A stretch of DNA of 63,057 nt, the filler included, from Nemertoderma westbladi (Eukaryota > Animalia > Xenacoelomorpha): the NCBI GenBank assembly GCA_032718475.1. It is 3 parts of 3 records of this genome, joined end to end, with 100 filler letters (N's around TTAATTAATTAA, not from the genome) between each part and the next. Parts side by side here need not be neighbours in the genome. Positions count along the whole stretch, not along the records: positions 1 to 25,176 come from JAUCBJ010008543.1; 2 more parts are not named here. One strand, 5' to 3'. The stretch's first letter is position 1. The number at the start of each line of letters is the position of its first letter. The notes beneath the pieces are model-generated. The model did no database searches and was not told where the DNA came from. It saw nothing but the letters and a program-made list of their open reading frames with translations. The translations under genes and the position numbers were made by a program. Shown one piece after another: positions 1,551-37,370 of the stretch.

Positions 1551-3200
1551 TTAAACCCGAGACCCATCCATAGGGACCCAGTGCCTCTTCACAAGAATCC
1601 CCTGCGGCCAGGATCTAGTGTCAATAAGTTTTTCATACACATCCTTACTCCGAGTTATTATAATAAACGAGCTATAGGTCTGGTGTAGTTGTTTCGGGTT
1701 AGCAACCACCGAACCAACAGACAAATTATGCTGCGAGTTAATAAACTCCTCGACAACCGCTGCTGTTGTTTCGGGGGTGAAACGAGAAACAAAGATACGC
1801 AACTCTTGCGGCTCACGGGCAGCCGCAACTAGGCCAGGAAACTCAAAAGTACCGGTTCCAATCGGCGCCGGACGTTTCTTCCGCCTGTCGGCAGTGAAAC
1901 CACCGGGGAACGCAGCACGGGTACCAGAAGCAGGAGGAACAGGACCGTCCGATGTAGCAGGTTGCTTGGAGGGACCTCCATTGACACCGCCGCCACCCCG
2001 GCGTCGTCCTCGTAGACCACGTAGTTTAGCAGATCGAGGACGTCGACTTGCTTCTTCACTGTCGGAAGCAGCCTGATCAGAAGTCAAATCAACCAGCGGA
2101 TCAAACCGATTGTGAACTGCTGGCTGGGGACTGGGGAAGTAGGTAGGCATGGGACGCCTTGGGGGGTGGCCAGGATGGCCACGAACTGCACTCGCATATG
2201 AGTTGAGCTGGATTTGATTAGAGACCCGAGCCCGATGGAAGTTGCCACTGGATACAGCTGTGGCTCCCTCCAGTCCGGTGTTCGCACCATGTTCGGAATA
2301 ATCGGGATCCAGATCTGCCCCGGAGGCGGAGACAAGGTCTGTAACTTCCTCCTCTTCATTACGGGTATAGTCGACGGGGCGAGGAAACTCCCTCCGGCAC
2401 AGATTATTCGAAGAAACTCGATCAGAGACCCTCACGGAAACCAGATTAGCGACAATAGGACTGACCAATTCCGGCAGATCATCCTTCTTACAGTACGATT
2501 CCTTGAGCAGGATGTCATGGCGTTCAATTGAGAGTTTCATTTCTAGGAGGGAATCACGAAGATCTCTAAAGTCCTCGCCGCGTACAGCCAAGTTCACAGA
2601 CTGTTTATCCGTCGGCGGTAAACGCGCCGGATTTAGCGCGTAGAAGCATGGACAATTCTCTGAGTCTACAAAACAACTCTCGTTGAATAAATTATACATG
2701 TCAAGGACATGATTTCTCTTCGCTTTATTGCCGATACGACCAACCCAGGAAGGCAACGGGCGATCAGGAACAGCACACTTAACTGCCTCAGCGAAGAGCA
2801 ATTTCTTCGCTAAAACAATATCATCCAGCGAGTAAAAGTTCGCGATCGCAGCAGACAACTGAATTTTGTCTAGCGTGGAAATTCCAAACTGCAGAAAACA
2901 AAGCAGTTCCGAGTGAACGAGCCGACAGTCTGCTCCATGATCATCTAGGATCGGTGCCTCCTCCACCAGCCCCCGATCCTCAGTTTGAGAGATGGTAATC
3001 GAATCACTATCATTACCGTCCTCCTCCACCGTAAACACGTCAGTCACCCTTGGAGTCATACTGTCACAACGCTTCAAGCAACAGCTTTCACATAAAAGCC
3101 TATTATCCAACAATTTAAAGATCACAGATGGTTTACCGTTTACAGCACTAATTGGCAGCTCCACGGTCAGGCAATCTGCACACTTCTTTAGTGATGTCAT
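1551..3200 (-). CDS. LINE ORF1 (N-terminal Cys-rich finger, C-terminal RRM-like domain), CR1/L2 group
   Basis: 549-aa ORF with CxxC...CxxC, SELLCFLQ and a C-terminal IFVSRF...YSSF...WPQGILVK motif, directly upstream of ORF2. Confidence 0.85.
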   Translation of the reverse strand: MTSLKKCADCLTVELPISAVNGKPSVIFKLLDNRLLCESCCLKRCDSMTPRVTDVFTVEEDGNDSDSITISQTEDRGLVEEAPILDDHGADCRLVHSELLCFLQFGISTLDKIQLSAAIANFYSLDDIVLAKKLLFAEAVKCAVPDRPLPSWVGRIGNKAKRNHVLDMYNLFNESCFVDSENCPCFYALNPARLPPTDKQSVNLAVRGEDFRDLRDSLLEMKLSIERHDILLKESYCKKDDLPELVSPIVANLVSVRVSDRVSSNNLCRREFPRPVDYTRNEEEEVTDLVSASGADLDPDYSEHGANTGLEGATAVSSGNFHRARVSNQIQLNSYASAVRGHPGHPPRRPMPTYFPSPQPAVHNRFDPLVDLTSDQAASDSEEASRRPRSAKLRGLRGRRRGGGGVNGGPSKQPATSDGPVPPASGTRAAFPGGFTADRRKKRPAPIGTGTFEFPGLVAAAREPQELRIFVSRFTPETTAAVVEEFINSQHNLSVGSVVANPKQLHQTYSSFIIITRSKDVYEKLIDTRSWPQGILVKRHWVPMDGSRV

Positions 3201-3295
3201 TCCGGTCAGTGTACAGCAGTACAGCAGTATAACGCTAGGATTTAGCTAGGCTTCAGCTGTACAAAGTTAGCACCTTATAATGAAGGCAGTGTTAT

Positions 3296-3836
3296 GATAA
3301 TGAAGGCAGTGTTCCTGCTGGAGAACTCTGGACTACTCGATTGATTCATATTCGAGGACTAGCCGGTTCTATGCACGTCTTCACTCACGCTTGCTCTGAT
3401 GCAATCGACTACTCTTTCGAAACCCTCACTGAGATCCAAAAGAGACTCTGGCATGGACAATTTGAACTCGCACAGCGTTATGTCTTTGACACAGAATGGA
3501 AACCAGCTATGGGAATAGATGGATCTATGCTTCCTCAACCCTTGCTCGAGATGTTATTCGATGAAAGAATTATTAAGCTTAGTGCCTCGATCTATGGAGA
3601 TCTTCGGAACGATTTTAGAAATAGTGAAAATATTCCATATCCATTTGTCGATACACAGTTGATAGCACCTTGGGCGGAAGGTTGATGATTTTTCCGAACC
3701 ATGTATGCTACTACACCGAGCAGGATCAATAAAGTCCAACGTACTTCCATCGGACATTTAGCATTCCAAGAATGTGGATGTAATTTTAAAGTGGGAAATC
3801 CACTTAATTATCAACAGGTGGGAGGTGTATTCTACA
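3296..3836 (+). pseudogene. DEDDy (WRN/EXD/RNase D-like) 3'-5' exonuclease, 5' part, disrupted
   Basis: ExoI-like VFDTEWKP, then LPQPLLEMLFDERIIK...DL, FVDTQLIA, SIGHLA and QQ. ORFs 3341 and 3701 share one frame, separated by TGA TGA. Confidence 0.65.
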
Positions 3837-4384
3837 GACTAAGACGCATTTTCCCATTAAATATACTCCGAATAATTTTTCTTAGATTAGTTTATCCGTA
3901 CTTATGCTACGGGATCATTGTGTGGGGAAGTACGTATAAGTCGATTTTAAACCCATTGAGAATTAAAATAAATAAGATAGTTCGTTGTATAACGTTCAGC
4001 CATTGGCAAAGTTCATCAACACCTATATATCAAAAACTTAACATCCTACCTCTTGATTCCTTGTATAGATATAACATATGTGGGTTAATGTACGATATTA
4101 GTAAAAACTCAAAGCACCCATTATCTCATCTTTTCTTTAAATCTACCGCGGCCCATGACTACAATACTCGTACAGCATCTAGGGGCAATTTTAACTTGCC
4201 CAGCGTGCGTTTGGAAGTCGCTAAAAGGTCCGCAAAATTTCAAGGGCCACTAGAATGGAATAAACTTGAGGACTCTTTAAGAGTTTAAGAGCTACAGCTA
4301 GTCCTTTAAAATCAGTTTCCCTTAAGAGGCTAAGAAAATTGCTGTTGTAAAAGTTATAAAAAAAAAAACTAAAATTAAGTAACA
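3837..4384 (+). mobile_element. 5'-truncated CR1/L2-like LINE (RT C-terminal region and 3' UTR, probably continuing after 15293)
   Basis: LVYPYLCYGIIVWGST...KIVRCIT...LNIL...HDYNTR...GPLEWN, typical of the C-terminus of CR1/L2/Crack ORF2. Confidence 0.8.
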
Positions 4385-5099
4385 CATGGAATACTAAATA
4401 TACACGGAACCGCATTAGTGTTATTTTTTCGGCCCCGAAATTTTTTTCAATAAAATGGTAGTATATGCCATAGAAACCTCAGAAAAAAAATTTAAGCAAA
4501 TTTGACCGGAGCGTTTCCATGGAAACCGGGCAAACATAAAATTTCTAGGTTTTGCCATGAATTAATTATTTTTTCCATCTACTACCCTATTTATTTTTAT
4601 CCTATTTATTTTTCTTTCTAGCACAGGTAACTATAGCAACGAGGTAAAATCTATTAATATATATATATATATAAAATATATTTAAATAAACACTGCTGTG
4701 GAAGCTAATTTTGACACTTTTATTAGTTTTATATATTACTCCCCCCCCCCCCCCCCCCCCCTATTGATACAATTTAATATCAATTCAATTTATAATTAAA
4801 TATAATATTGTGGTGTACTGTAGTGATTGTGGCACTACATTGTGTCGAAAACAGTAATTTATTCTATCCTACTTTATATAATGTAATATATACAGTATGT
4901 ATAGGGAGGCTATGTAATTGATTCTTTATGCAGTATAATAATAATAAACCATTAATAGAAACGGCGTTTCCGCCGGCTTTAGGCCTCTTCAGCAGTACTG
5001 CCAAGTACTGGACACCCCATTTCCAAAGATGTATAGCTGTTACTAGTAGTGGTGATTGTCAAGATACGAGTGGCGATTCTCCTATTATTCTGATTGCTG

Positions 5100-5455
5100 G
5101 CAGAGTCTCCAGGTGGCAGTGGTTGTAGAATCATCAGACAGGGTGGCAGTGGTAGTAAAGATGACAGCCAGGGTGGCAACGTGGCAGTGGTAGTAGAAAC
5201 AACAGCCATGATGGCAACGTGGTAGGTAGTGGAAACAACAGCCAGGGTGGCAATGGATGTAGAGTCAACAGTCAGGGTGGCAGTGGTAGTAAAGATGACA
5301 GCCAGGGTGGCAACGTGGCAGTGGTAGTAGAAACAACAGCCAAGATGGCAACGTGGTAGGTAGTGGAAACAACAGCCAGGGTGGCAATGGATGTAGAGTC
5401 AACAGTCAGGGTGGCAGTGGTAGTAGAAGCAACTACCAGGGTGGCAGTGATAGTA
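5100..5455. repeat. Degenerate minisatellite (CAGGGTGGCA-based subunits in a duplicated ~135-bp block)
   Basis: Repeated cagggtggca(g/a)tggtagtag motifs. Confidence 0.8.
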
Positions 5456-7243
5456 ACATGGCACTGACTTTACAATTATTCCATTTCCCCCACTTAGACC
5501 TCTTACCATAATATCCAGCAGGGTCTTTGGTGATTCAATAATACCTCCTGCACTAAATATTGATTCTCTCTGTAAGTAAATTTCATCCGCGTATATTACA
5601 ACATTATGATCCATACCAATGCTCTTTAGAAGTGTATAAACTTTTACATCACCTCTTGTCAACTTTTCAAAGAATGAAATGCTGGGTAGGTTCGGCATCA
5701 GCTTCAAGAGCTCTTTATATCCATTCCTGCTCTTATAACGTAGAATAAGACACTTTCTAATGATATTCTTGGGGTATATTCCAATCTTTTTATAATTGCG
5801 GTACTCGTCTAGAAATTCCATGAAATCTGAGTCAAAATTAGGCAATGAATGAAACTTGACCTCATTCATTAGCCTAAGCAAAACGCTTTTCTTCTGAACT
5901 TTATTATACACACTTTTGTTACGTGGTAAATAGCTAAAATTAACGAGGGGTATTTTAGAGGTATTTTGAGAAACAATAAAGTACGTCGTTGAGATCTTAA
6001 GTAAGTAATTCAGTTTTAGATTTTCTGGGGAAATTTCATAAATCATAATTCCATCTTCACTTTCAACATCACACTTACACGCATGTACCTCTCTATTCTT
6101 AAAAACATCCTCGTCTTCAATCCCTTGCTTTATATTTCCCAACTCCCACTCTAATTTGTCTTCTTCAACTAATTTTCTATTTTCGAGTAGGTTGTATAGT
6201 GTGGGATCAACTTTTCGTTTAGTTGGTGACTTTCGTAGTGGAGATGTCAATGGCACAGCCAATGTAAATATTGATGGAATTGATTCCTTTTTGAGATTGG
6301 AACTTCGAAACTGCAAATTTCTGTTCATCATAAAATCCTTCGGCTCAAAGTGAACTTTACAAATTCGATCTTTATCGTAATCGAATTCTCGACCTAACAA
6401 AAATATTAATCTAAAATAATTTATACGGCTAGTGTTCCGCCCGTGCCAGTATTTATATTTCACATTGCAATGTAAACTAATTACTACTGAATACAAAAAC
6501 TCGAATCAATAATCAATTAATTTTTTACGAGCTAGTATCTTTTGAAACTATAAAAATGTTGAAATATTTGGCAATAAATTGTTAAAAGTTGAAATCTGAT
6601 TTTTTTTTTTAAATTACTAGCTAATTTAAAATTAAAAAATAACTATAGCTATATGTTCTAGATCATTTTATTTTTTATTTTATTCTGGAATAGTTAAATA
6701 ACTTTTATATGGTGTTCTATAACTAATATTGAAGCCATAGTAACAATGATTAAGGAACATACGCATACGCACGGATAGCCGTTTTTTTTAACTAGCTAGT
6801 ATTTTTTGAAATTATAAAAAAATGTGAAAACATTGATTCTAGAATGTTTTCCAATATTAAAAAAACACTAAATAAAATATTATTTTTTTTATTTTAAAAA
6901 ATACTAGCTAGTGAAAAAAATACTACTAGATGTCAGAAAAAATGTCTACTAAGGTTCTAGAACAATCACCAATGTTCTAGAACATAATAAAATGCAATAA
7001 AACCAAATAAAAAGAAATACAAATTTTATAAATTTGCTGTACCATGGCTATACACATACTATAGTAGTACCAAATAGATAACATGTCGTAGAACATTTCA
7101 TGCATGATTATAATAATAAAATCCTTACCTGGCGTATTCAGCCCCTGACGAATCGCTTGTTTCCATTCATTGCAAACAGCAACATCAATAGGAAACCGGT
7201 GCAAATGGTCTTTTGACTTGCAAACTAAACAAGTACGTGGCAT
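5399..7243 (-). pseudogene. Spliced THAP-domain P-element transposase, truncated
   Basis: Exon 1 (7243-7129, MPRTCLVC...HRFP...W, GTAAGG donor) joins exon 2 from 6393 (TTAG acceptor) in frame: GREFDYDKDRICKVHF...IPSIF. Then LRYKSRNGY..L...LPS and the first catalytic Asp (YADEI); similarity ends near 5460. Confidence 0.85.
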
Positions 7244-7359
7244 GATGTAGATAGTTCACTATGTGTAGCCAGTGAAGTAGTGTAGGCCCTACTGTGTAGG
7301 GACTAAAGGTTACTGGTACTAGTGATGTACTGGTTAATTGTAATCGAAAAATTATCGGT

Positions 7360-7814
7360 TAATACCCAATTGACAAAGGTAATTGGTTTTGCAGCGACAT
7401 CCTATGTGACTATTTTCCCTTCCTTGGAGGGGTGTGTGTGTATTAGCATTTGCTCGGCAGGAATAACCAGACTCGTATATCAACCTGGACCAGAGCCATT
7501 TCCCCTCCCTTGGAGGTTGTGTATCAGCATATGGTCTATAGGAACAACCAGGTTTGTAAATCACTCTGGGCAGCAAAGCTCAAAGCCAGAATATCGTTGC
7601 TAAGGCAACGTCCTATCAGAGCTTCAAGGTGCAGGTAGGTTACTAGCAGTGTAAGTAATGGAGCTGACTGCTCACCGTATATTGACAAATATTGGGTTGA
7701 CTGAAACGTTCATTCCAACATTGCATAATACTACAAATATTATACTGACTTATTGTTTGTTAATATTTTTACCAAGGGAGAAATATTTGGATAGCATTCT
7801 AAAAAATTTTTTTT
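7360..7814 (+). repeat. Split direct repeat A1 (matches A2 at 14227-~14681)
   Basis: Direct comparison; the ORF-track translations of 7450-7638 and 14317-14505 are identical. Confidence 0.95.
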
Positions 7815-8134
7815 CATTATATTATACTTTGGTGTACATAAGCTTCTGTACTTTCATCTTTAACTTAATTACATAATTATTCTTATTTGCGAAGTCTTTC
7901 GGTTTGTTTTTTTTTTCTCTCCTTACGAGTTACTAGGAGTTTTTAGTCGCGAATATAAAATACATTGTTCTTGTATATAACATACTGTATGGTATATATG
8001 TATTCATACATATACCGAAACTCATGTTAATATGGTAATAATAATGCAATTATTTTGGCAACGGCTTTACTGCTGTTATATCTGTAAAATTACGCATCTA
8101 TCTGTTTATCCGAATCCCTTAAGGCAGTAAGGGG

Positions 8135-9160
8135 GAGACAGCCTATGGGCTTAGGCGGATGTCCAGATCCCTTTACGGGAGGACAGCCTAATATACAGGC
8201 GGAAGTCCGGATCCCTTTACGGGAGGACAGCCTAATATTTACAGGTGGGTGTCCGGATCCCTTTACGGGAGGACAGCCTAATATCTACAGGCGGATGTCC
8301 GGATCCCTTCACGGGAGGACAGCCTAATATCTACAGGCGGATGTCCGGATCCCTTTACGGGAGGACAGCCTAATATACAGGCGGATGTCCGGATCCCTTC
8401 ACGGGAGGACAGCCTAATATACAGGCGGATGTCCGGATCCCTTCACGGGAGGACAGCCTAATATCTACAGGTGGGTGTCCGGATCCCTTTACGGGAGGAC
8501 AGCCTAATATCTACAGGCGGATGTCCGGATCCCTTCACGGGAGGACAGCCTAATATCTACAGGCGGATGTCCGGATCCCTTTACGGGAGGACAGCCTAAT
8601 ATACAGGCGGATGTCCGGATCCCTTCACGGGAGGACAGCCTAATATACAGGCGGATGTCCGGATCCCTTCACGGGAGGACAGCCTAATATCTACAGGCGG
8701 ATGTCCGGATCCCTTTACGGGAGGACAGCCTAATATATAGGCGGATGTCCGGATCCCTTCACGGGAGGACAGCCTAATATCTACAGGCGGATGTCCGGAT
8801 CCCTTTACAGGAGGACAGCCTAATATACAGGCGGATGTCCGGATCCCTTCACGGGAGGACAGCCTAATATCTACAGGCGGATGTCCGGATCCCTTTACGG
8901 GAGGACAGCCCAATATACAGGCGGATTTCCGGATCCCTTTACGGGAGGACAGCCTAATATCTATAGGCGGATGTCCGGATCCCTTCACGGGAGGACAGCC
9001 TAATATCTATAGGTGGATTTTGTCCAGATCCCTTTACGGGAGGAGAGCTTAATATCTATAGGTGGATGTCCGGATCCTTTCATGGGAGGACAGCTTTCAG
9101 GCTGATGTCCGGATCCCTTTATGGGAGGACAGACTACAGGCGGATTTCCGGATCCCTTTA
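8135..9160. repeat. Tandem array of ~22 units of 44/46 bp, each a potential bulged hairpin
   Basis: Unit AGGCGGATGTCCGGATCCCTTYACGGGAGGACAGCCTAATA(TC)TAC; period measured at 8290, 8336 and 8380. Confidence 0.95.
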
Positions 9161-9369
9161 TTCAATGAGAGCCTATTATATAACATGCTCTTAATACAAG
9201 GGCAGCATGTTGTCAGAAGCTAGGTATTATATCTATTTATTTCTTTTTTTTCCCCTTTCTTATGGATCATAATGTTATGCTGACTCGTTGGTTAGATATA
9301 ACTAGCTGAGTACGGTATAATCGCTATAATTTATTCATCAACGAACAGTATAACTGCAGAATAAAGCAC

Positions 9370-11289
9370 ATGACACCGTTCTTTGCTCTCAGCAAATACT
9401 TTGAGATAAACACAGATATCCCAATCAGAGCTCCGATCATGACAACCTTAGACACAGCACAAAGGTTATATCCTTATGATCATGCAAGAACATGTGGTGA
9501 ATTCTTAACCCTCTCAACACCGTCAACATTACCCGCAGCTACATTGCAGGAATTCCTAGATTTACCGATTCATTCAGTAGAATATATGATAAACAAAGAA
9601 CCAACAACCCCGATTCACATAGAAAATTTAAGGAAGGATTTGCAATATTACCCTGACCAACAACTTGTGGCAGAATTGCTCACACAGTTAACCAATGGTG
9701 TCAACACAGGTTACAATGGTCCCAGAGATAAATTTATATTCCGTGAAAATAATAAGTCCGCACTTGATAATGCTCTACAAGTAGACGAGTTACTGACCAA
9801 AGAAATTAAATCTGGCTTCATCGAAGGCCCCTTCATCAATGTACCCAAGATAACAACATCATCTTCCCTTATTGTTGTAAACCCACTAACATTGAGTGCC
9901 ATCAAAAACAAAAAGCCAAGGCTCTGTGTTGACTGCTCACACAATCTCAAAGGGACATTAAATAGCTTTATTTCTGATGAAGATTCCACTGTGACATATA
10001 CAACGATAGATGATATCGTGGATAGTGTCATGTTCTGTGGAAATCATGCTCTAATTGGAAAATTAGATGTCAAAGATGCTTTCAAAATCATCCCAATCTC
10101 AAAGAAGGATTGGTGTCTCCTAGGAATTAAATGGCGAAATATGTTTTTTGTATGCATCAGATTAGTATTCGGATTAAGATCAGCAAGTCGCATATTTCAA
10201 AATTATAGTACTCTAATAAAAGACACAATTATTAACAAATTATCAATCCTTCCATGTCCTCCTAGCCAAAATCTCGAACTCGAAATAGACACAACAACAA
10301 TGTTATCAGATATCACTAAGATTGATCACTTATTAGATGACTTTATTATAACAACTGTTAATATTCCAGAATTGGCCACATACACTTTCAATTTGATAAT
10401 TGACATTTTCAAACACTATCACATTCCTCTAAATACCCAGAAAACTTTCCCCCCTGAACACCGGCAGACAGTATTCGGGATTGGAATAAACACCATTTCA
10501 ATGAAGTTCTTTGTGCCAAATGACAAGCAAGGTACAGCCCTAGCAGAAATTCACCGATTTCAAAACATGGCATCAGGAACTATGATAAATAAACGTGAGC
10601 TTCAGAGCCTTATTGGGCTACTATCATTCATCTCTAAAGCAGTATGTGCTAGTCGCACATTTCTTCGTCGCCTCATTAATGCAATATCAGTGTCCAAGCA
10701 TCAAAAGATGATATGCATTCCAGGTAAGTTGCACCTCGACCTGGAATATTGGATATTTGCATTACACACATTACATAACTATCAAGCACCTTTACAAAAC
10801 CCAACCATGCTGACTCCTAGCCAACACACCCTGTCAACAGATGCATCTGGGTTTGGTTTGGGAGGTATTTGTAATGAAGACTGGTTCTCAGTACGGCTAC
10901 CAGAACAGATGACTAACAATCAATTATCAATAGCAGCAAAAGAGTCAGCGGCTATACTACTCGCAGTTAAAGTATATGGGCGATCTTTTGGTGGTTCAAG
11001 GCTACTAATTTATAGTGACAGTGAGACCAGCATACATGCATTTGCAAAGGGAACTTCCAATAAGCCAGTGCAGATGACACTGATTCGCCTACTTCTCCAC
11101 ACTTGCACAGAATACGGAATAATGGTATTCTGCCAGCACATCCCAGGACATGACAACATTGGTCCAGATCTCTTGAGCCGTCTCAGGATCAGCAAATTCA
11201 AAGCTTTGTTTCCAAAAATGAATGGAGACCCAACTCCTGTTCTTGACCAATGGTCCGAAATCAAACAAGCCATTTTCAATCCAGTATAA
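9370..11289 (+). CDS. Reverse transcriptase / RNase H of the YR retrotransposon (no methyltransferase)
   Basis: KPRLCVDCS, KLDVKDAF, LVFGLRSA, HLLDDF; RNase H motifs TDASGFG, AAKE, YSDS, HIPGHDNIGPDLLSR. Confidence 0.95.
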   Translation: MTPFFALSKYFEINTDIPIRAPIMTTLDTAQRLYPYDHARTCGEFLTLSTPSTLPAATLQEFLDLPIHSVEYMINKEPTTPIHIENLRKDLQYYPDQQLVAELLTQLTNGVNTGYNGPRDKFIFRENNKSALDNALQVDELLTKEIKSGFIEGPFINVPKITTSSSLIVVNPLTLSAIKNKKPRLCVDCSHNLKGTLNSFISDEDSTVTYTTIDDIVDSVMFCGNHALIGKLDVKDAFKIIPISKKDWCLLGIKWRNMFFVCIRLVFGLRSASRIFQNYSTLIKDTIINKLSILPCPPSQNLELEIDTTTMLSDITKIDHLLDDFIITTVNIPELATYTFNLIIDIFKHYHIPLNTQKTFPPEHRQTVFGIGINTISMKFFVPNDKQGTALAEIHRFQNMASGTMINKRELQSLIGLLSFISKAVCASRTFLRRLINAISVSKHQKMICIPGKLHLDLEYWIFALHTLHNYQAPLQNPTMLTPSQHTLSTDASGFGLGGICNEDWFSVRLPEQMTNNQLSIAAKESAAILLAVKVYGRSFGGSRLLIYSDSETSIHAFAKGTSNKPVQMTLIRLLLHTCTEYGIMVFCQHIPGHDNIGPDLLSRLRISKFKALFPKMNGDPTPVLDQWSEIKQAIFNPV

Positions 11290-11524
11290 AAATAACATAG
11301 ACAATGCTACAATGTCCACAAGTAAGACAATGTATTTTATTTATTTTATATAAATATTTTTTTTTCATACTTTATACCAAATGAAAACTATAGCTATCCC
11401 AAGGTGATCATCGTTTCACAGTCAACAATATATCTTAACATTTAGCGGTATCATGGTTCATGGTAAAATATCATGCATAGATAAGTAAATTTGTTTTCAA
11501 TAAGTATATAAAATCTACAACATC

Positions 11525-12682
11525 ATGTCAGTTCCAGAGATAAATTATACCATTGGCACTATTGCATATAGAGGCGAAAGCAACTCATGGTTGAGATTAC
11601 AACTGTCAACCGAGGGTCCCATCTGGGAGGGCACAGAAGCCCCAAGTAGTGCATCACAATATCTGGTGTTGCATCATGGTGAGCAGGTAACATTCTCTGG
11701 TGTAGTATACAAATTAAATAAAGCCATCAATAAGGATTTTATTCTTTTTATTCCGGTCAGAGCAACATCCCCTGAGCCACACATACAACCTGAGACAGCC
11801 CAAGAACATGAAATTACATTCATGGAGAAGTTTGTAGGAGTTTTGTTGAAGGCTCAACAAAATTATTCTATGGATGGGATAACACAATCGAAAGGAAACA
11901 AACGCCAAGAAACACGATCGGACAAGGAAGTGCCTGGGGTATTGTCATCAACACGACCACTTGAAAGGGACACGGTGGATCAACTTCGCTTGCAGTACCG
12001 ATATATCCCTCTAACTGATCTGGCTGAACGGCAAGAGCTGAATGGAAAATATGGGAAAAACGCAGAAGTAGAATCCACAGGGGGAATGTTGAACTGCTTA
12101 GCCCTACTTGCTAGTTATAAGAGTGCCTTCTATCCAGAAGAAGCACCAAAGATATGGACTTATTATCGGAACATGCTCGAGATAGCCCCATTATATTCAC
12201 TTGGGTTTTTACTCAAGGTTGACAAAGACCATCGTCTCTATGTTGAAACCAATCAGGGAGGATGGGAGCGACCACCAACTATTCGCCATCCCATGCGATC
12301 AGACTACATGAACAGATGTCGAAACTGCGACAAGCAGCATTTAGGCTCATGTTTGCCAGCAGAGGCATTTATGACGTCACCAAGGAAAACAAACCAGAGC
12401 AACTTCAAGAGGGGAGTTTTCTGCCACGGGTGTCACCGTGAGGGTCATTATCGCCCTGATTGCAAATCCAAAAACCGAGAGGATTCTGAATCACACTTCA
12501 AGAGGAGATATCAGGATGACTCAGACGATGTTAGAAGAGGTACAAATGACAATAGGTTCCGACATCGACTTCGGTACGATAATGAAGAGGACAATAATAT
12601 CAACAATGCTAGGGAGAGGGTCCCGATTGTAAAATCGCTGCCTAAAAAAGCCTTAGGAAACCAATTTATTCAGCAAGGATAG
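11525..12682 (+). CDS. Gag-like protein with two zinc knuckles
   Basis: YPEEAPKIWTY...Y...VDKDHR resembles the Ngaro Gag core; CRNCDKQHLGSC and canonical CHGCHREGHYRPDC (CX2CX4HX4C). Confidence 0.85.
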   Translation: MSVPEINYTIGTIAYRGESNSWLRLQLSTEGPIWEGTEAPSSASQYLVLHHGEQVTFSGVVYKLNKAINKDFILFIPVRATSPEPHIQPETAQEHEITFMEKFVGVLLKAQQNYSMDGITQSKGNKRQETRSDKEVPGVLSSTRPLERDTVDQLRLQYRYIPLTDLAERQELNGKYGKNAEVESTGGMLNCLALLASYKSAFYPEEAPKIWTYYRNMLEIAPLYSLGFLLKVDKDHRLYVETNQGGWERPPTIRHPMRSDYMNRCRNCDKQHLGSCLPAEAFMTSPRKTNQSNFKRGVFCHGCHREGHYRPDCKSKNREDSESHFKRRYQDDSDDVRRGTNDNRFRHRLRYDNEEDNNINNARERVPIVKSLPKKALGNQFIQQG

Positions 12683-12824
12683 TTTACCCACAAGCCTAAA
12701 ACTGTTTAAATATATATAATCGCATCTATAAAAAAAATAGCATATGTTATTAAGTAGTTTACGAACTAAACTATAAATAGTTTATATATATATTGTCTAC
12801 CAGCCATATGAAACATCCATCGCC

Positions 12825-13733
12825 ATGGAAATTCACCAATCCTTAATAAATCAGCTTGTTGTTGATAGTTTTAGTCATAATACCCAAAAGAAGTATATAT
12901 CAGCATGGTATAAGTACAAACTATTCTGCAGGATCGCAGGAAAAGCACATACTCCTGTTTGTCAAAGAACTCTGGAAACATTTATTCTTATGTCTCACTA
13001 TAGTGGTCTGCGGGCATCATCTATACGGATGTACCTTGCAGGTATAATGAGTACTTTAATGAACATAGAATGCTCATCAGATATAAATATGGGACGGCTA
13101 CAACATATTATACGAGGATGCGAAAGAGCCAATGGAGCTCCATCTGTTGCGCGGCCTATAATGGCAGCCGACCTACACTTATTAATGCAATCCTTACCAC
13201 AATTTTACAACAACCGTTTGCTTGATATACAAATGATGAAGGCCATTTTTACAATGGCTTTCTTCGGTGGCATGAGAGTGTCAGAATATGTTAATTTGAC
13301 AAGGTCTAATATCGAAATGTCAATTAATTGCATAATCATAACTCTGGACCATTCAAAGACATCACGTTCAGCTCTAAAGTTTCCCATTGCTAAGGTGGGT
13401 GGACCATTGTGCCCACATAATCGCCTGAAGATATACCTACAGTTCAGAGATCAATGCGGCCCAAACATATCCCCACTTTTTATATGGTCAACAGGTGAAT
13501 CAGTTCAAGCCCACCACATTAATGGTGTTTTACGTAAAATAATGGGACAGGGTTACTCCAGCCATAGTTTTCGTTCTGGGATGGCCACCACTGCCTCCAA
13601 GGTTGGTATACCTCCAAACACTATAAAGAAATTAGGACGATGGAGAAGTTCTTGCTACGAATCCTACATAAGGCCATCAGACTACGAACTCATAAATGCT
13701 CAACGCGTTATGGTATCTTCAATCAATAACTGA
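12825..13733 (+). CDS. Tyrosine recombinase
   Basis: AFFGGMRVSE, SKT, CP, HSFRSGMAT and LGRWRSSCYESYIR: catalytic R-K-H-R-W-Y set intact. Confidence 0.95.
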   Translation: MEIHQSLINQLVVDSFSHNTQKKYISAWYKYKLFCRIAGKAHTPVCQRTLETFILMSHYSGLRASSIRMYLAGIMSTLMNIECSSDINMGRLQHIIRGCERANGAPSVARPIMAADLHLLMQSLPQFYNNRLLDIQMMKAIFTMAFFGGMRVSEYVNLTRSNIEMSINCIIITLDHSKTSRSALKFPIAKVGGPLCPHNRLKIYLQFRDQCGPNISPLFIWSTGESVQAHHINGVLRKIMGQGYSSHSFRSGMATTASKVGIPPNTIKKLGRWRSSCYESYIRPSDYELINAQRVMVSSINN

Positions 13734-14067
13734 TACATGTTCACTGATCATGAACATAATATATGATTACTATTATTATTAGATATTATATATATCCTTT
13801 ATTCGAAATTATATATAGTCATATATTATATCTTAATTTACCTATACACAACAGCATGTATGTGTTGTATACGCATGAAAATATCGATTCTGAATTTATT
13901 CTATTAGAAACCAAAATCGCCATCTCAATTTGTAAGAATAATAATAATTAATAGTGCCTCAATTTATTTTATTTTTTTTTTTCATGGTTGAAATAGGCAT
14001 AGGAAGTGGTACTTGATCAGTGCATTTCCGTATATCCACCTTCTGCCATTCTGATTGGGGGTTTCTT

Positions 14068-14944
14068 TGGGGGGTTGTTTTTTCCCTCTTCAGAATAGCA
14101 AACAGGATTACCTAACTAGGCTAGACTTCCCCAAACACGAACGCGAGCAATTCGACAGACAATGGTGCATAACGACAACGTTTGCTTTATATCACTATAT
14201 ATATGTATTTCCACAGGAGATCGCTGTAATACCCAATTGACAAAGGTAATTGGTTTTGCAGCGACATCCTATGTGACTATTTTCCCTTCCTTGGAGGGGT
14301 GTGTGTGTATTAGCATTTGCTCGGCAGGAATAACCAGACTCGTATATCAACCTGGACCAGAGCCATTTCCCCTCCCTTGGAGGTTGTGTATCAGCATATG
14401 GTCTATAGGAACAACCAGGTTTGTAAATCACTCTGGGCAGCAAAGCTCAAAGCCAGAATATCGTTGCTAAGGCAACGTCCTATCAGAGCTTCAAGGTGCA
14501 GGTAGGTTACTAGCAGTGTAAGTAATGGAGCTGACTGCTCACCGTATATTGACAAATATTGGGTTGACTGAAACGTTCATTCCAACATTGCATAATACTA
14601 CAAATATTATACTGACTTATTGTTTGTTAATATTTTTACCAAGGGAGAAATATTTGGATAGCATTCTAAAAAATTTTTTTTTTTTTACCCTCTTCCGGCC
14701 TTGCGATTGGCCGTAGATGAACGATCTTAGACAGCACGCGTTTTCTGGTCTTACCTAGTTTCCTATCTTGTCTGCCCACCTGGGGGGTTGTTTTTTCCCT
14801 CTTCAGAATAGCAAACAGGATTACCTAACTAGGCTAGACTTCCCCAAACACGAACGCGAGCAATTCGACAGACAATGGTGCATAACGACAACGTTTGCTT
14901 TATATCACTATATATATGTATTTCCACAGGAGATCGCTGTAATA
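14068..14944 (+). repeat. Right-end B1-A2-(spacer)-B2 split direct repeats
   Basis: B is 159 bp (14068-14226 and 14781-14939); A2 directly follows B1; ~94-bp spacer at 14687-14780. Confidence 0.95.
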
Positions 14945-15967
14945 TTGTTTTAAAATAGTGCAGGTGTAGCTACAGTAGTTGTGGTAATAATAATATTGTT
15001 GACAAACCAACGCATCAATGTTACAACAGCGCAGTTCAAGAATAATGGCAGTACTACTTGTTGCCATAGAAATATATCGCAAATAAGCTTAAATCGCCAC
15101 CAACACTGCATTTATTGTTGGCAAATTTGAAAACTTTGACGGATTATATCTCGAGAACGCTCCGGTCGAATTTGCTTAAATTTTTTTTCTGGGGTTTCTA
15201 TGGCATATACTACCACTTTATTGAAAAAAATATCGGGGCCGAAAAAATAACACTAATGCGGTTCCGTCTATATTTAGTATTCCATGAGTAACACCATTTC
15301 ATTTCTTTCTCTCCTTGGAAAAATAATCAAAAAGGAAAAAAAAATAAAATAAAAATTTTTTAATGCAAATACCTAAGACAATTAAAACTAAAATTAAGAA
15401 TGCAAAGTATGTAAAAATTCGGCAACAGGTATATCATCATCAGTATAGCATCCTCCCTATTTCGGTTATTGAATTTTATGTGAAAATATAAACAAAATTT
15501 AACTAAAAATTAATTCGCCGTACACCATTTTCCTCATGATTGTTTCACATCAGTACATTTGAGTCATCGCTAATTACAAATAAATTTAATTGAAAATAAA
15601 AATAAAGAAAAAAATTATATATTTCACCGTTGCAAGAAGGATACTCGTATGTATTCGCCAAGATCGTATGCATTCGTACGCATCCGTAAATACATGAACC
15701 AAAAGGACAAGGCTGGTCTGTATTAAATAAACTATCAAGGGTATAATGGAAGGAACCTGGAACCAAAAGGACAAGGCTGACCTTAGACTGACCTTAGACC
15801 AATTAATTCGCCATATTCAAAGACAATTTACAACATTTTCATTGAATTGATTGGACATAAATCATGTGACATACAACAACTTGCATTACAATGTTTATTC
15901 ACTTTCAAACCAGAGTATGTATTAATGTCGGATACGCTTTTGATTGCACCGTTAGAATAAAAATATA

Positions 15968-16935
15968 TAACTAGAGAGCCAGCAAGCTGGCTGGAAGGAG
16001 CCCGGGGGGAAGAATCCTAGCCAATACTAAACTAAACAATTGTCTAAATGGTGTGATGATACATAGCTGACTTTGTGGCTTGCCCCACATAATAAAAAAT
16101 GAAACTTTGCTGCCACTAACAACCGAATATTTATAAGAAAATGCCCATGATTCACAACCAGATAAATAACAAGTTAGATTTACCAGTACAGGTACGGTTA
16201 CCTTTCTTTTTGAAAACCATTAGATTTAACAATTAATAGAAGTCTAGGTCGCGGCGAAAAATAATAACGCAAATTAAACAACCATACAATCGGCCTACAC
16301 ACTTTTTATTATTCGAAATAAATTCGCTAACAGAAAATATCTAAACTAATTTATTTATTTACTAATTAATCTAAACGAGAAGGTGAACAATTGTTTCTAC
16401 ACAATTAATTATGACGACTTTTATGGGATATGTAATATTTACTGTTCAATAATAATTTACAATCTCCCATTCCAACACATTCCCAGAGAGTAATAATATC
16501 ATCAATATAACAAACTAAGTGGATTATAATTCGATTTCTTCAGCCAAGTCCGATAGCTATTTTTCTGAAATTTATATTGCTAATTTAATTATTTGGCATA
16601 TTCTGTTTGTGGCGCAGACTATAATAATAATAACATTGTTGACATACAGTCTTTGAACCTTTCAGTCTTTCTCAGCAGTACTTTGTGGCTCGTCCCACAT
16701 AATAAAAACTGAAACTTTGCTATGACAACACACCCGGTTCTTTTAAATTTGCGTGATCTGAAATTTTGTAACGCGATTATGAACCTCAAAAGCAATGTAC
16801 TTGCAAAATTTCATCAAAATCGCCAGGCAGGAAGTGCCTTAACCTAGATAATTATCAGTCAGTCAGTATGTCAGTCAATGTAATGTATCCTGAAGATTCT
16901 TACAGTAAGTATCCCGCTGTCAAGCGGGCTCCTAA
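15968..16935. mobile_element. Possible Helentron-associated (DINE-1/HINE-like) non-autonomous element
   Basis: Internal repeat ACTTTGTGGCT...AAACTTTGC (~16070, ~16680), core-like GCAAAATTTCATCAAAATCG, CAGT microsatellite and terminal stem-loop CCCGCT-GTCA-AGCGGG. Confidence 0.4.
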
Positions 16936-20058: not shown

Positions 20059-21359
20059 CAGCCAAACACAGTGCCGGCGGACCCAGCAACATAGTGCCCC
20101 CAGATCTTGCGATCAGCCAAACACGGTGCCGGCGGACCCAGCAACATAGCGCCCCCAGATCTCGCGGTCAGCCAAACACAGTGCCGGCGGACCCAGCAAC
20201 ATAGTGCCCCCAGATCTTGCGGTCAGCCAAACACAGTGCCGGCGGACCCAGCAACATAGTGCCCCCAGATCTCGCGGTCAGCCAAACACAGTGCCGGCGG
20301 ACCCAGCAACATAGTGCCCCCAGATCTTGCGGTCAGCCAAACACAGTGCCGGCGGACCCAGCAACATAGTGCCCCCAGATCTTGCGATCAGCCAAACACG
20401 GTGCCGGCGGACCCAGCAACATAGTGCCCCCAGATCTCGCGGTCAGCCAAACACAGTGCCGGCGGACCCAGCAACATAGTGCCCCCAGATCTTGCGATCA
20501 GCCAAACACGGTGCCGGCGGACCCAGCAACATAGTGCCCCCAGATCTCGCGGTCAGCCAAACACAGTGCCGGCGGACCCAGCAACATAGTGCCCCCAGAT
20601 CTTGCGGTCAGCCAAACACAGTGCCGGCGGACCCAGCAACATAGTGCCCCCAGATCTCGCGGTCAGCCAAACACAGTGCCGGCGGACCCAGCAACATAGT
20701 GCCCCCAGATCTTGCGGTCAGCCAAACACAGTGCCGGCGGACCCAGCAACATAGTGCCCCCAGATCTCGCGGTCAGCCAAACACAGTGCCGGCGGACCCA
20801 GTAACCTTTTGCCCCCAGATCTTGCGGTCAGCCAAACACAGTGCCGGCGGACCCAGCAACATAGTGCCCCCAGATCTCGCGGTCAGCCAAACACAGTGCC
20901 GGCGGACCCAGCAACATAGTGCCCCCAGATCTTGCGATCAGCCAAACACGGTGCCGGCGGACCCAGCAACATAGTGCCCCCAGATCTCGCGGTCAGCCAA
21001 ACACAGTGCCGGCGGACCCAGCAACATAGTGCCCCCAGATCTCGCGGTCAGCCAAACACAGTGCCGGCGGACCCAGCAACATAGTGCCCCCAGATCTCGC
21101 GGTCAGCCAAACACAGTGCCGGCGGACCCAGCAACATAGTGCCCCCAGATCTCGCGGTCAGCCAAACACAGTGCCGGCGGACCCAGCAACATAGTGCCCC
21201 CAGATCTCGCGGTCAGCCAAACACAGTGCCGGCGGACCCAGCAACATAGTGCCCCCAGATCTCGCGGTCAGCCAAACACAGTGCCGGCGGACCCAGCAAC
21301 ATAGTGCCCCCAGATCTCGCGGTCAGCCAAACACAGTGCCGGCGGACCCAGCAACATAG
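20059..21359. repeat. GC-rich minisatellite, 55-bp unit, ~23.5 copies
   Basis: Unit CAGCCAAACACAGTGCCGGCGGACCCAGCAACATAGTGCCCCCAGATCTYGCGRT; no unique spacers. Confidence 0.97.
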
Positions 21360-28619: not shown

Positions 28620-28848
28620 TCCGAAAGCATTGCGGAAGGACTGCGCTGTCGATTTAAACTGGATAAACTTCATAATTATTGTTTATCGTCGTGGTTTCGC
28701 CTATTACTAAAGTTTACAACAAAAATATAAATTTATTTTTACATTTGTTTTTATACGCCGAATGTAAAAAATAAATATACAATTAAAATCTTTCATATTC
28801 GTGAAAAATGAAGTTACTACTGTATCATAATAATCAATTTCAATACCA

Positions 28849-29915
28849 ACACAGCGCAGTGCACATAAATACAAACACAGCGCAGTGCACATAAATACAA
28901 ACACAACGCAGTGCACATAAATACAAAAACAGCGCAGTGCACATAAATACAAACACAGCGCAGCGCACATAAATACAAACACAGCGCAGTGCACATGAAT
29001 ACAAACACAGCGCAGTGCACATGAATACAAACACAGCGCAGTGCACATGAATACAAACACAGCACAGTGCACATAAATACATACACAGCGCAGTGCACAT
29101 AAATACAAACACAGCGCAGTGCACATAAATACAAACACAGCGCAGTGCACATGAATACAAACATTGCGCAGTGCACATGAATACAAACACAGTGCAGTGC
29201 ACATAAATACAAACATAGTGCAGTGCACATAAATACAAACACATCGCAGTGCACATAAATACATACACAGCGCAGTGCACATAAATACAAACACAGCGCA
29301 GTGCACATAAATACAAAACAGCGCAGTGCACATAAATCCAAACACAGCGCAGTGCACATAAATACAAACATAGTGCAGTGCACATAAATACAAACACAGC
29401 GCAGTGCACATAAATACAAAACCAGCGCAGTGCACATAAATACAAACATAGTGCAGTGCACATAAATACAAACACAGCACAGTGCACATAAATACAAACA
29501 TAGTGCAGTGCACATAAATACAAACATAGTGCAGTGCACATAAATACAAACACAGCGCGGTGCACATAAATACAAAAACAGCGCAGTGCACATAAATACA
29601 AACATAGTGCAGTGCGCATAAATACAAACATAATAATAAGTGAATTGTCATATTGTCCTATTTACATTGTATAAATACAAACATAGTACAGTGCACATAA
29701 ATACAAACATAGTGCAGTGCACATAAATACAAACACAGCGCAGTGCACATAAATACAAACACAGCGCAGTGCACATAAATACAAACACAGCGCAGTGCAC
29801 ATAAATACAAACACAGCGCAGTGTACAATAAATACAAACGCAGCGCAGTGCACATAAATACAAACACAGCGCAGTGCACAATAAATACAAACACAGCGTA
29901 GTGCAGTGCACATAA
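28849..29915. repeat. 26-bp minisatellite, ~38-40 copies in two blocks
   Basis: Unit AAACACAGCGCAGTGCACATAAATAC; accounts for the Cys-rich ORFs in all three minus frames. Confidence 0.97.
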
Positions 29916-32982: not shown

Positions 32983-33415
32983 TCTCTGTAACCTGCTCCT
33001 TTCCCTCAATTAGTTAAATGATCGTTTATTGTTTTGGTTGGAAAATCCCGCCTCTGTAACCTGCTGTCCCTTTCCCTCAATTAGTTAAGTGATTGTTTAT
33101 TGTTTTGGTTAGAAAATTCCGCCTCTGTAACCTGTCCCTTTCCCTCAATTAGTTAAATGATAGTTTATTGTTTTGGTTAGAAAATCCCGCCTCTGTAACC
33201 TGCTCCTTTCCCTCAATAAGTTAAGTGATCGTTTATTGTTTTGGTTAGAAAATCCCGCCTCTGTAACCTGCTCCTTTCCCTCAATTAGTTAAGTGATCGT
33301 TTATTGTATTGGTTAGAAAATCCCGTCTCTGTAACCTGCTCCTTTCCCTGATTTGGTAAAGTGACTGTTTATTGTTTTGGTTAGAAAACTCAGCCTTAAC
33401 CTGCTCCTTTCTATC
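32983..33415. repeat. ~68-bp tandem repeat, ~6 copies
   Basis: CTCTGTAACCTGCTCCTTTCCCTCAATTAGTTAAGTGATCGTTTATTGTTTTGGTTAGAAAATCCCG; diverged copies near 34495 and 40640-40770. Confidence 0.9.
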
Positions 33416-35875
33416 AATTGGTAATTGTTTTTGGCTATAAAATGAGTGTTTTGCTACGTCATGTGGTAATCGATTATCAACAACAACTACAAACTATTAA
33501 ATATAGAGTCTTTTTACCACAGGCGCATATGGAAATCTATCTCATAGTCTATAAATCATGGAATGTTTTGGCACAGGCATAGTGAAATCAACTGTCTGAC
33601 ATTCCAGAAATCAGCAGTCTGACAGTTTGAAGAAATACATACATAAAAAGTCATTAAAAGGACAACAAAAGTCATTATGCATAATTCGTAAAAAAAAAGG
33701 ACAAAAAAAGTCAAATAAAAGGACATAAAAAATCACTGCCGAATGTTAAAATGAATGCCTCCTTGCTCCATTGGTAACACAAGTCATAAGTCATTTGATA
33801 AAAAATATAAGATGCATCTCACATTTACTGCATATTTATACGCAAAGTAACCAATCACAGGCATCTTGCCGGATATAACACATGATTCATATGTCAAAAG
33901 ATGGAACATGGGACATAATCACTCTCGACTCATAGGTCGTAACTTACGATTTACCAGTGGAGACGCCCCCATTGAAACCAATGTGTTCCATAATTTATTC
34001 TGACTAAGACTACATAAGACTTTATACCAGTGGAGCACGGGCCTTAAATAGTGGTTTTTCCAATTTGCTTTTTACAATTTGCTTATAAAATGACGTTTTT
34101 TAGATTGATCTTACAACATTTTACATTTATTTTATATTATTTTACTTTGAATTAATTATTAAATAATATGATAATATTATGATTGGTATTGTCATTGTCC
34201 AACGTAACATATAGGATGACCCCTAAAGATTTGCAGCTTATTTCCATGGGGGTCCTTTATGTTATTTGGTTACAAATACAATATTACTCAATTACAATTA
34301 CTACTCTAACCTAAATCTAATATAAACGTTATTACAACACGTACAGGTCAGCTGCGAGTGGTCTTTAGTTCAGTTCTGCGTCGAAGGTGCTGCATAATAT
34401 AGTAGTTTAATTTTTATTTACAGCAAATCCATTTCTTACCATAAATCTATTTATTCCCAGCAATAATTAAACTGTAACATGTACTATTGGCCTCGTTTAT
34501 TGTTTTGGTTCGAATAACATGTCACTGTGACATGCTCCTTTCCCTTAAAGACACCAGGATATTGCACCAAAGGACCTAATGACGCGAAACCATAGGTTTT
34601 TGTTTAACGTAGGTTTTTAGGTATGAGTCTAAATGCTAATAACCTAACTTTTGGCCAAAGTTATAGATTTTAGAAAAATTTTGTATTGAATTCCCTGTCG
34701 TTCAATGCCGAAGTACCATCCCGTCCCATTACGGCCCAGGCCACTCTACACTACACCCACTTTAATTCCGCCCAAGGTTCTGATTCCTCCTCTCATTATC
34801 AAATATCAAAGCCAGAACAACAAACACCAAAAAGTTTCGTTTCGATTCGAGAAAATCTAAAGACACTATAAAATGTGCCTCAGTGTGCATCAGCCTTCTC
34901 CTATTTTTTGCACAGAGATTTGGGAAGATACAATTAGTAATATTAAATAGGGGTTGGCTATCAGAATATAATTTTTTAATGGCAAAACATTTTTTTATTC
35001 TTAAATTGTTACAAAATCGGGAGAAAAATAAGTACTTTTTTCCCGGCGAAAAAAGGAAAATAAAATATTTTTGGTGGAATGTCTTAAAATGTGTTGAAAG
35101 AAATAATTAAATAGCTTCTGCCCTGAACTCTTTCTTTATAGGAGTAAAAAACTTTATCTTAAAAAGAAACAAGTGTTTCTATTATATTATAGACATTGAT
35201 ATAATATTTATTACATTAAATGATAATCGATCGAATTTTTTCTTCATTTGAAATGATTTTCGATTAATTTTTCACTATTCCAAATATCAAACATTTTTAA
35301 CAAAACTGTTATAAATCATGTAGGGTAGGCTAACTGTAGTTGTAAAAGCAAAACAGTTACTTATCCTTTTATTTTATTATTCATTATTGTTGTTTTTGGC
35401 AACATTTTAAGCTGCAGGGCATATAAATTCAGGATCGGGACGGGATCCGAATATTCCATCGGGATCCCGTTGCAACACTAGTAGGTTATTGTGGCTCTCA
35501 AATCCCCAATATACCGATTTAGGATTTATTAAAGCTGCGATGGAGAGGATATATTTTTGTTTTGGTGGTTGTCCTAATCCTACAAACATACCAAATCGAG
35601 ATAATTAGCCAAATGTTTGCAGTGTCCTTTAAAATATCCTAGTTTTTCCATACTTATTGACTAACTAGTAAACCAATGCTACAAAAATAGCAACCCCTGT
35701 TACTGTAAAACTGGGAGGAAATTCTGTGGAAAAACCAAATATAATTGCCTCGTTATTTATTTAGGAAGTAAATGCACATGTCTCAAGGATATATTATCTG
35801 GTCTATTGATGCAACATGATGCCAGTACGTTGCAGACACCTTATTGGTTGCTGCTAACCAATAACCATCCAATCA

Positions 35876-36114: not shown

Positions 36115-37370
36115 CAATTCTTCCACCATGCTTACTCACTCCATGAGGCTGCCAAAGCACAAGATTATGCACTGGCTGGTCCTCACGGCGAAAGCAATGT
36201 CCTGCAAAGCATATATACCTCATATACTCCCATATAAGAGTACTGGAACTACTGCTGCCATAAATAATCGAACCTTAAGGTTCCGTTTTATTCAATGGGA
36301 CTTCCAAATCCTGGAAAGCCTATTCAAGGCTGCCCATGCCTTTCCCTTACGTATTCGAAGATCCTCACCTGACTTCCGGATCTATGATCCCAGGTAACAG
36401 AAGTCGTCCACATGCTCAAGCATACCATCATTTGAGCTTATGCTCATCCAATCAGAGACTTGCTGAGGACTTTCAAAGTTAACTGTCAAAATTTTGGTCT
36501 TTCTGGAGTTAATAAAAAGACCAACACTAGAAGCAGCATGTTCTAATGAGCTGAGGAGCCGTTGGGCTCCCTCTAGTGATTCTGAGAGTACTCCTAAGTC
36601 ATCAGCAAAGTCTAGATCAGTTAGGTACTTGGCAGGATTTCCTCGACTTCTGGAGCCAGTAGGTGGAGTTATCATCACCCCATCATCATTATGATGATCT
36701 AAGGACATGCGTAGAACATAGTCAACCACAATTATGAACAAGAATGGTGCAAGTGTGTCTCCCTGGAGGACGCCCCATAACACTTCAAATGGTTCTGTGT
36801 CACCACCAACAGTAGACACAAATGTTGTCGAACCATCGTATACTGATCTGATTGCTGCAATAATTTCATCAGGAATCCCATATAATGAAAGTATGCTGAA
36901 CATACGTGAGCGAGAGACTGAATCAAAGGCCTTGAAGAAGTCAACAAAGATAACAGCCAGATGCCTGTCTTCTTTTTTGACCCCACGGGTTTTTAGGTTG
37001 CTCTACTTTGGGGGCTGGGACCAACATATTTGTTTTCAGTTCTTGAGGGACTGTCTTTGTCCTATGTCCAGTCCACAATAATGGGTGAATGAGCTTCAAA
37101 CACATTTCACAAACAACATTTTAAAGACCTCAGGGGGCACGCCATCTACTCCACTGGCACGATTGGTCTTGATGCTCTTTGCTGCAGTTTTAATTTCAGC
37201 AAAGGAGATGTAACCAATTCGGATATCTGTGAACACAGACTCAGATACAAAGGTTTCAACACAGACTCAGATACAAAGGTTTCAGGCAATAGAATGCCCG
37301 GTCATTGTTTAGAAGCTTCTCAAAGTATGCCTTCCAACCTTTGAGGCGTTCAGCTGGAGTCTTTGAATGA
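36115..37370 (-). mobile_element. Decayed RTE-like LINE fragment in an RPL26 intron
   Basis: DFFKAFDS, YGIP, GVLQGDTLAPFLF, DLDFADDL, FCYLGS. Confidence 0.88.

Follow-up and report, generated by a model that had tools for sequence, protein, structure and literature searches.

The 63,057-nucleotide (nt) window, which is the whole stretch of DNA from Nemertoderma westbladi (assembly GCA_032718475.1) analysed here, contains at positions 7360-14944 a 7.6 kb element that is very probably an intact Ngaro-like tyrosine recombinase (YR) retrotransposon of a divergent lineage, likely autonomous and likely to have moved recently, with its genes arranged between split direct repeats in the order reverse transcriptase (RT)/ribonuclease H (RNase H), Gag-like gene, YR. 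In long terminal repeat retrotransposons and retroviruses gag comes first as a rule, and this sets a high ratio of Gag to Pol. Gag also comes first in published YR retrotransposons (PMC9210276, PMC3266345, PMC3783388, PMC8547959, PMC6681497, PMC4157794; these and other papers are cited from the parts of their text that were available). The order found here is neither the gag-RT/RNase H-YR of Ngaro-like elements nor the gag-YR-RT/RNase H of VIPER-like elements.

The element comprises the following parts, including three open reading frames (ORFs) whose products are given in amino acids (aa).

7360-7814, + strand: split direct repeat A1, 455 nt, 100% identical to A2, starting with the TAATA junction core
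8149-9182 (about), no strand assigned: tandem array of 23 units of 44-46 nt, located after A1 and before the first ORF
9370-11289, + strand: RT/RNase H ORF, 639 aa from the first ATG, with an LLDD active-site motif; assigned from its relatives and alignment
11525-12682, + strand: Gag-like ORF2, 385 aa, with an unassigned N-terminal region, a helical core homologous to Ngaro ORF1, and two zinc knuckles
12825-13733, + strand: YR ORF, 302 aa, in which the motif residues (R, K, HxxR, W and Y) are present
14068-14231, + strand: split direct repeat B1, 164 nt, 100% identical to B2
14210-14275, no strand assigned: imperfect inverted repeat of 66 nt at the B1/A2 junction, whose arms are the end of B and the start of A; the predicted circle junction
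14227-14681, + strand: split direct repeat A2, 455 nt, 100% identical to A1
14682-14780, + strand: A2-B2 spacer, 99 nt, bridged by an X1 read contig (14651-14810)
14781-14944, + strand: split direct repeat B2, 164 nt, 100% identical to B1, with the TAATA core at its end

The repeats thus follow the order A1...B1-A2-B2, with the internal copies B1 and A2 downstream of the YR ORF, and TAATA recurs as the 5-nt overlap of B1 and A2 and, identically, at both outer ends of the element. Mapped from stop to stop, the three ORFs occupy 9310-11289 (659 aa), 11504-12682 (392 aa) and 12777-13733 (318 aa) of the + strand with zero overlap, and their first in-frame ATGs lie at 9370, 11525 and 12825, respectively; the guanine-plus-cytosine content is 39-44% inside the ORFs against 26-27% in the spacers between and after them. 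The presence of RT/RNase H and a YR, without a DDE integrase, is characteristic of the order DIRS, and the arrangement of the repeats, with both pairs identical and the internal copies 3' of the YR gene, is that of Ngaro-like elements. No long terminal inverted pair of the DIRS1-like kind was present among the longest 25 of the 81 listed inverted pairs, and no Rfam family matched across 6500-16000. The split repeats, the three uninterrupted and non-overlapping ORFs and the AT-rich spacers described in a first-pass annotation of this DNA are all borne out by these measurements, as is its assignment to the Ngaro-like class, which draws further support from the absence of a methyltransferase and from the homology of the Gag-like protein.

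The RT/RNase H ORF matches the Pfam family RVT_1 below threshold (E = 0.06). A homologue search, in which 7994 candidates were scored, retrieved 153 proteins at E<=1e-3, of which the closest, P0001, is 39% identical and the remainder about 30%; the named relatives belong to molluscs, cnidarians and one fish. In the alignment the RT aspartates are retained as LLDD, as opposed to the YLDD or similar motif of most relatives, and the acidic residues of RNase H are retained as well; we take these motif residues to have the functional roles usual for the two enzymes. An insertion before the LLDD motif is common to the RT of the window and P0001. No methyltransferase domain, such as PAT-like elements carry and Ngaro-like elements lack, was found in the Pfam search, and there is no room for one because the ORF stops 35 residues past the last RNase H motif, a distance of <=51 residues being found in 104 of the 107 motif-bearing sequences. 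In phylogenetic trees the RT of the window pairs with P0001 (100/100 support) on a long branch that departs from the sampled Ngaro-like RTs, which number 23 in one tree and 49 in the other. The larger tree included 47 of the 120 listed RT matches together with three locus RTs, and the smaller 22 matches and two locus RTs; the references are sampled animal Ngaro-like RTs, with no named Ngaro, DIRS1, PAT or VIPER sequences among them, and the sole outgroup is a partial gypsy-like RT, which entails a risk of long-branch effects.

The assignment of the third gene is more direct. The YR ORF matches the Pfam family Phage_integrase at E 1.3e-9 and shares 28% identity with YRs from canonical loci, and its R, K, HxxR, W and Y residues are in register; compared with PDB sequences it gave no matches.

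ORF2 encodes two zinc knuckles, CX2CX3HX3C and CX2CX4HX4C, the latter visible directly in the sequence. Used alone, it retrieved none of 1166 candidates in a word-indexed homologue search and had no Pfam match, and its homology to Ngaro-like Gags is reached solely via intermediate relatives. When 1.84 billion representatives were searched in full by HMMER with ORF2, four matches emerged. Three of these (P0131-P0133) align with it over nearly the full length, including both knuckles, at E 4e-9 to 1.5e-5 and 22-27% identity to the Gag of the window, and all three match Pfam zf-CCHC; the fourth, P0134, was dropped from the family, its match being confined to the knuckle. A profile of ORF2 and P0131-P0133 matched the cores of 11 canonical gags, that is, gags of loci or proteins with the order gag-RT(-YR) and not of named reference elements, at an HHalign probability of 88.6% (E 2.7e-6, score 46.6), the best of 60 column shuffles scoring 17.7 and the reversed profile 10.9; against a second gag alignment the probability was 78%. 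When ORF2 was left out, the profile of P0131-P0133 recovered it at E 2.4e-18 among 679 frames of the window and matched the canonical gag core at 84% (E 7e-6). In a gapless test with a profile of the block conserved among gags, ORF2 ranked first of 271 window frames, above 2999 of 3000 shuffles. As in the five canonical loci L001-L005, the knuckles are C-terminal to the Gag core, and the gag and Gag-relative profiles found no further gag-like frame in the window, including upstream of the RT. These profile matches, bridged by P0131-P0133, indicate that ORF2 and the first ORF of gag-RT-YR elements are distant homologues; together with the visible CCHC knuckle, they uphold the zinc-knuckle Gag that had been recognised earlier downstream of RT/RNase H.

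The gene order was compared with contigs from sequencing reads (X1, X2, X3 and X5), 92% of the sampled window words being present in three runs of two studies. RT runs into gag in one X2 contig (9001-12249), gag runs into YR in an X1 contig (11387-13542) and an X3 contig (11387-14055), and X2 and X3 both connect the tandem array with RT. Among the 13 listed joints there is none from RT to YR and none that places gag before RT. Read depth over the three genes is 135, 135 and 130-160 in X2, 132-134 in X3 and, less level, 370-470 in X1. At least seven differences between the window and the read contigs fall within the ORFs, and those listed comprise four silent and three missense changes and no stop. 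From X5, which bears the same species label and belongs to a third study, a 398-nt piece at 13988-14385 was obtained.

Several observations point to movement of the element. In three of four runs the flanks are joined without it (joint 7362-14941), and in X1 a second right flank directly follows ...TAAT. Three letter differences between the window and the contigs stand at equal offsets in both repeat copies (7699/14566, 7770/14637 and 14186/14899), a pattern to be anticipated from copying of the repeats off a single template; the published split-repeat model implies near-identical repeat pairs at insertion (PMC6681497). In X2 the depth is 130-150 over the element and 28-36 over some flank contigs, a contrast that hints at several copies of the element without amounting to a copy number. 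The recent movement in this form proposed by the first-pass annotation is hence supported by the identity of the repeats, the open ORFs, the empty form of the flanks and the second right flank. Joints 14674-7807 (X2) and 14939-7360 (X3) were not accepted as circles, since the collapse of A1 and A2 in assembly gives the same result. Separately, a 472-nt X1 contig, in which the start of repeat B (14781) adjoins unrelated sequence, could be a truncated copy, a solo repeat or another family with B, and a low-depth 195-nt contig of X2 and X3 that matches parts of A (14546-14667) with differences, followed by spacer-like sequence, is probably from a diverged sister family in the same genome.

A number of results weigh against the interpretation given above, and they concern the identity of ORF2, the continuity of the read evidence and the signs of movement. 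Compared directly with the canonical gags, ORF2 gave an HHalign probability of 1% and a hidden Markov model score of -4.1 bits; its gapless score was 3.7, compared with 50-153 for true members, and the block had been picked after the match was seen. The structure models are of low confidence (pLDDT 34 and 46), and no capsid fold emerged from Foldseek at E<=0.001 or from VIA-align, whose best Z of 4.8 is uninformative. No contig covers the whole element, RT-gag being bridged in one study and gag-YR in the other, and the window may itself derive from one of these bridging studies. A clean TAATA target would give an empty form 2 nt shorter than the one observed, which probably comes from paralogous copies of the flank repeat, because the flank itself is a high-depth repeat, and which thus falls short of a proven empty allele. 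Letters shared by both repeat copies could also result from assembly polishing or gene conversion.

The negative direct comparisons and the missing capsid fold are in line with ORF2 being an accessory zinc-knuckle protein and the element a gag-less, non-autonomous form, the more so as the Gag/capsid role of the Ngaro ORF1 family was itself assigned by position and not by experiment (PMC8547959, PMC6681497). The in-register profile homology to the Ngaro ORF1 core, reached independently via three relatives, and the placement of the knuckles C-terminal to the core as in L001-L005 make this an unlikely explanation. The AT-rich spacers that part the ORFs and the lack of a contig spanning the three genes would, on the other hand, suit a chimera or nested pair, in which the RT of one element had come to lie beside the gag-YR cassette of another. 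That origin is improbable to a slightly greater degree, given that one set of split repeats bounds the three genes, the array is the only long internal repeat, depth over the genes is near level in X2 and X3 (less so in X1) and no alternative joints were seen. The misassembly of a canonical element can hardly be credited: the region is rich in repeats and the window holds four short runs of N, yet none of these falls within the element, and contigs of two studies reproduce the RT-gag, gag-YR and array-RT links. Since these contigs bridge RT-gag and gag-YR and show the empty site and a second right flank, a misassembly or one-off chimera is unlikely. The order RT/RNase H, Gag, YR read in the first-pass annotation is accordingly reproduced at both junctions, and the misassembly that it had named as a concern left no sign in the short-read contigs, which keep the order of the window.

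For an intact Ngaro-like element of this kind, the published split-repeat model suggests a cycle in which the Gag-like protein would bind the full-length RNA via its zinc knuckles and the RNA would be reverse transcribed. The A and B repeats would then rebuild the ends to give a circle with one B/A junction, and the recombinase would insert this circle by recombining the TAAT(A) core with a matching genomic site; a circle-and-recombine model has been proposed, and partly tested, for DIRS-1 (PMC7192593). Since gene order plays no part in such a cycle, which relies on the repeats, the element would be expected to remain mobile after the rearrangement. The inverted repeat at the B1/A2 junction gave DNA-fold z scores of -4.0 and -4.3 on the two strands, none of 200 shuffles being as good, and is the strongest of the 1076 66-nt segments of the element outside the array. 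This predicted hairpin would likely aid end joining or the presentation of the core. Neither it nor the tandem array figures in the first-pass annotation. A second candidate hairpin, in the left target flank, did not hold up (z 0.01).

Of the steps in this mechanism, expression has the least support. Every ORF starts at an ATG of its own downstream of an AT-rich spacer, and for this reason the three proteins may come from separate or spliced RNAs and not from frameshifting. Upstream of the RT start there are 34 ATGs, and 14 of the 21 at 8100-9170 begin an identical 10-codon mini-ORF in the array units; translated from full-length RNA, the mini-ORF array could tentatively be expected to damp RT synthesis. 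Most array units contain the in-frame ATG...TAA (10 codons) together with the palindrome TCCGGA, and the array is collapsed in the read contigs (joint 8193-9001). Candidate splice consensus sequences comprise donor-like sites at 7379, 7635 and 7651 and an AG immediately 5' of the RT and YR ATGs.

Among known groups, the element has most in common with Ngaro-like elements, represented by Xenopus DIRS-53_XT (PMC9210276) and the Cafeteria Ngaros (PMC8547959), with which it shares the A1...B1-A2-B2 repeats, an RT/RNase H without methyltransferase, the YR in last place, internal repeats downstream of the YR and a Gag-like ORF of the same family. It differs from them in that this ORF lies between RT/RNase H and YR, whereas theirs comes first, in its RT, which is about 30% identical and on a long branch, in the extra N-terminal region of its Gag, and in having a 1-kb tandem array before RT and no hydrolase ORF. 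PAT-like elements (Pat1, TOC and Kangaroo; PMC4157794, PMC3266345) also have split direct repeats, and the Gag of Pat1 has a zinc finger, but they encode a methyltransferase and place gag first, in contrast to the methyltransferase-free, gag-second element described here; their inverted YR and relocated internal repeats demonstrate that layouts are not fixed. With DIRS1-like elements (PMC3266345, PMC7192593) it shares YR, RT/RNase H, Gag and a proposed integration via the short junction core of a circular intermediate, and is set apart by their inverted terminal repeats and internal complementary region, methyltransferase domain and leading gag. VIPER/TATE elements (PMC6681497) have split direct repeats, no methyltransferase, an order other than gag-RT-YR and, in some Gags, a CCHC box; their order, however, is gag-YR-RT, with gag first, they are reported only from kinetoplastids, and their RT/RNase H measures about 950 aa in T. 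cruzi.

Cyclic permutation of this VIPER order, and not of gag-RT-YR, yields RT-gag-YR, which, with the split direct repeats found there too (PMC6681497), could indicate that the element derives from a VIPER/TATE-type ancestor by circular permutation and not from Ngaro. We consider such a descent highly improbable, since the RT best matches animal proteins such as occur in gag-RT-YR loci, whose ORF1 is homologous to the Gag here, and VIPER-like elements are reported only from kinetoplastids (PMC9210276). Layout variants recorded for YR elements extend to inverted YR genes, moved internal repeats and the VIPER order (PMC4157794, PMC3266345, PMC6681497). The first-pass annotation was right that described elements put gag first, but its use of overlapping ORFs as the usual Ngaro contrast does not hold, overlaps being usually absent in Ngaro and Viper (PMC3266345). 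No RT-gag-YR element was found in the literature searched, to which figures and supplements, Repbase, Dfam and three key reviews did not belong, and the available parts of PMC13465315, PMC8556966 and PMC12440569 hold nothing bearing on that order; the tables that PMC9210276 and PMC6681497 derive from Repbase may be relevant to its novelty.

How old and how widespread the arrangement is separates two views of its origin. In the first, a canonical gag-RT-YR Ngaro was rearranged by a recent accident within the host lineage, for example through the loss of the first gag, the first YR and the second RT from a tandem gag-RT-YR pair, and this single family then spread while its relatives kept the usual order; this differs from the Ngaro-like reading favoured above in age and breadth only. 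One metagenome scan yielded nine loci, all 26-33% identical and none of the sister lineage, and gag is first in all six that show both genes (L001-L005, which are five near-identical copies of one family, and L007). No relative with the order RT-gag-YR was seen, scans of viral and prokaryote genomes gave no relatives with DNA context, and the tandem array occupies the position where canonical Ngaro elements have gag. These findings favour a recent accident, which is a plausible origin, if somewhat short of an even chance; against it, RT and Gag are both far from canonical Ngaro and have distant relatives of their own (P0001 at 39%; P0131-P0133 at 22-27%), and the three ORFs, with their own start codons and no overlap, suggest long adaptation.

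In the second view, which is put forward tentatively as a possibility, the element would be the first observed member of a lineage that is old and distinct and forms a fifth group alongside DIRS1, PAT, Ngaro and VIPER, with pol before gag, its own Gag (P0131-P0133) and RT (P0001) families, separately initiated genes and a hairpin integration junction as its traits. The undescribed lineage suspected in the first-pass annotation gains from the long RT branch shared with P0001 and from the three Gag relatives; the gene order was observed in this element. If a fifth lineage exists, it would be a working gag-pol retroelement without the gag-first layout, overlooked since its RT and Gag fall under standard profile thresholds. 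Routine annotation may miss such elements because the RT lies below the Pfam threshold and the Gag has no Pfam match. An intact and apparently mobile pol-first element would imply that elements replicating by way of split repeats can dispense with the gag-first order, and would offer a natural case of how YR elements express and dose three proteins, a poorly known matter; the junction hairpin is a concrete candidate substrate for a eukaryotic retrotransposon recombinase.

The retrotransposon lies about 115 nt upstream of the start of a THAP-domain frame, within a flank of high read depth. Two such frames, at 5399-6505 (- strand) and 6977-7255 (- strand), match Pfam below the cut-off (E 0.0014 and 0.052); the longer carries what resembles the start of a P-element-type transposase. 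The retrotransposon is probably nested inside a DNA transposon. A 153-nt inverted pair (4363-4515 and 15156-15308, 91.5% identity) encloses the THAP frames and the retrotransposon and could be either two copies of a dispersed repeat or the ends of the host transposon. Fragments of non-LTR retrotransposons, with endonuclease and RVT_1 matches, occur at 2-1402, 36385-37002 and 46841-47572 (all - strand), and a 564-aa ORF without a Pfam match (1554-3245, - strand), just upstream of the endonuclease frame, is possibly ORF1 of that element. In metagenome locus L001, the canonical Ngaro-like element adjoins gypsy-like RT and integrase fragments (341-1868, 2640-5418). Satellite arrays occupy 20059-21359, 28842-29905, 32984-33419 and 55225-56955 of the window, with periods of 55, 26, 68 and 15/32 nt, respectively.

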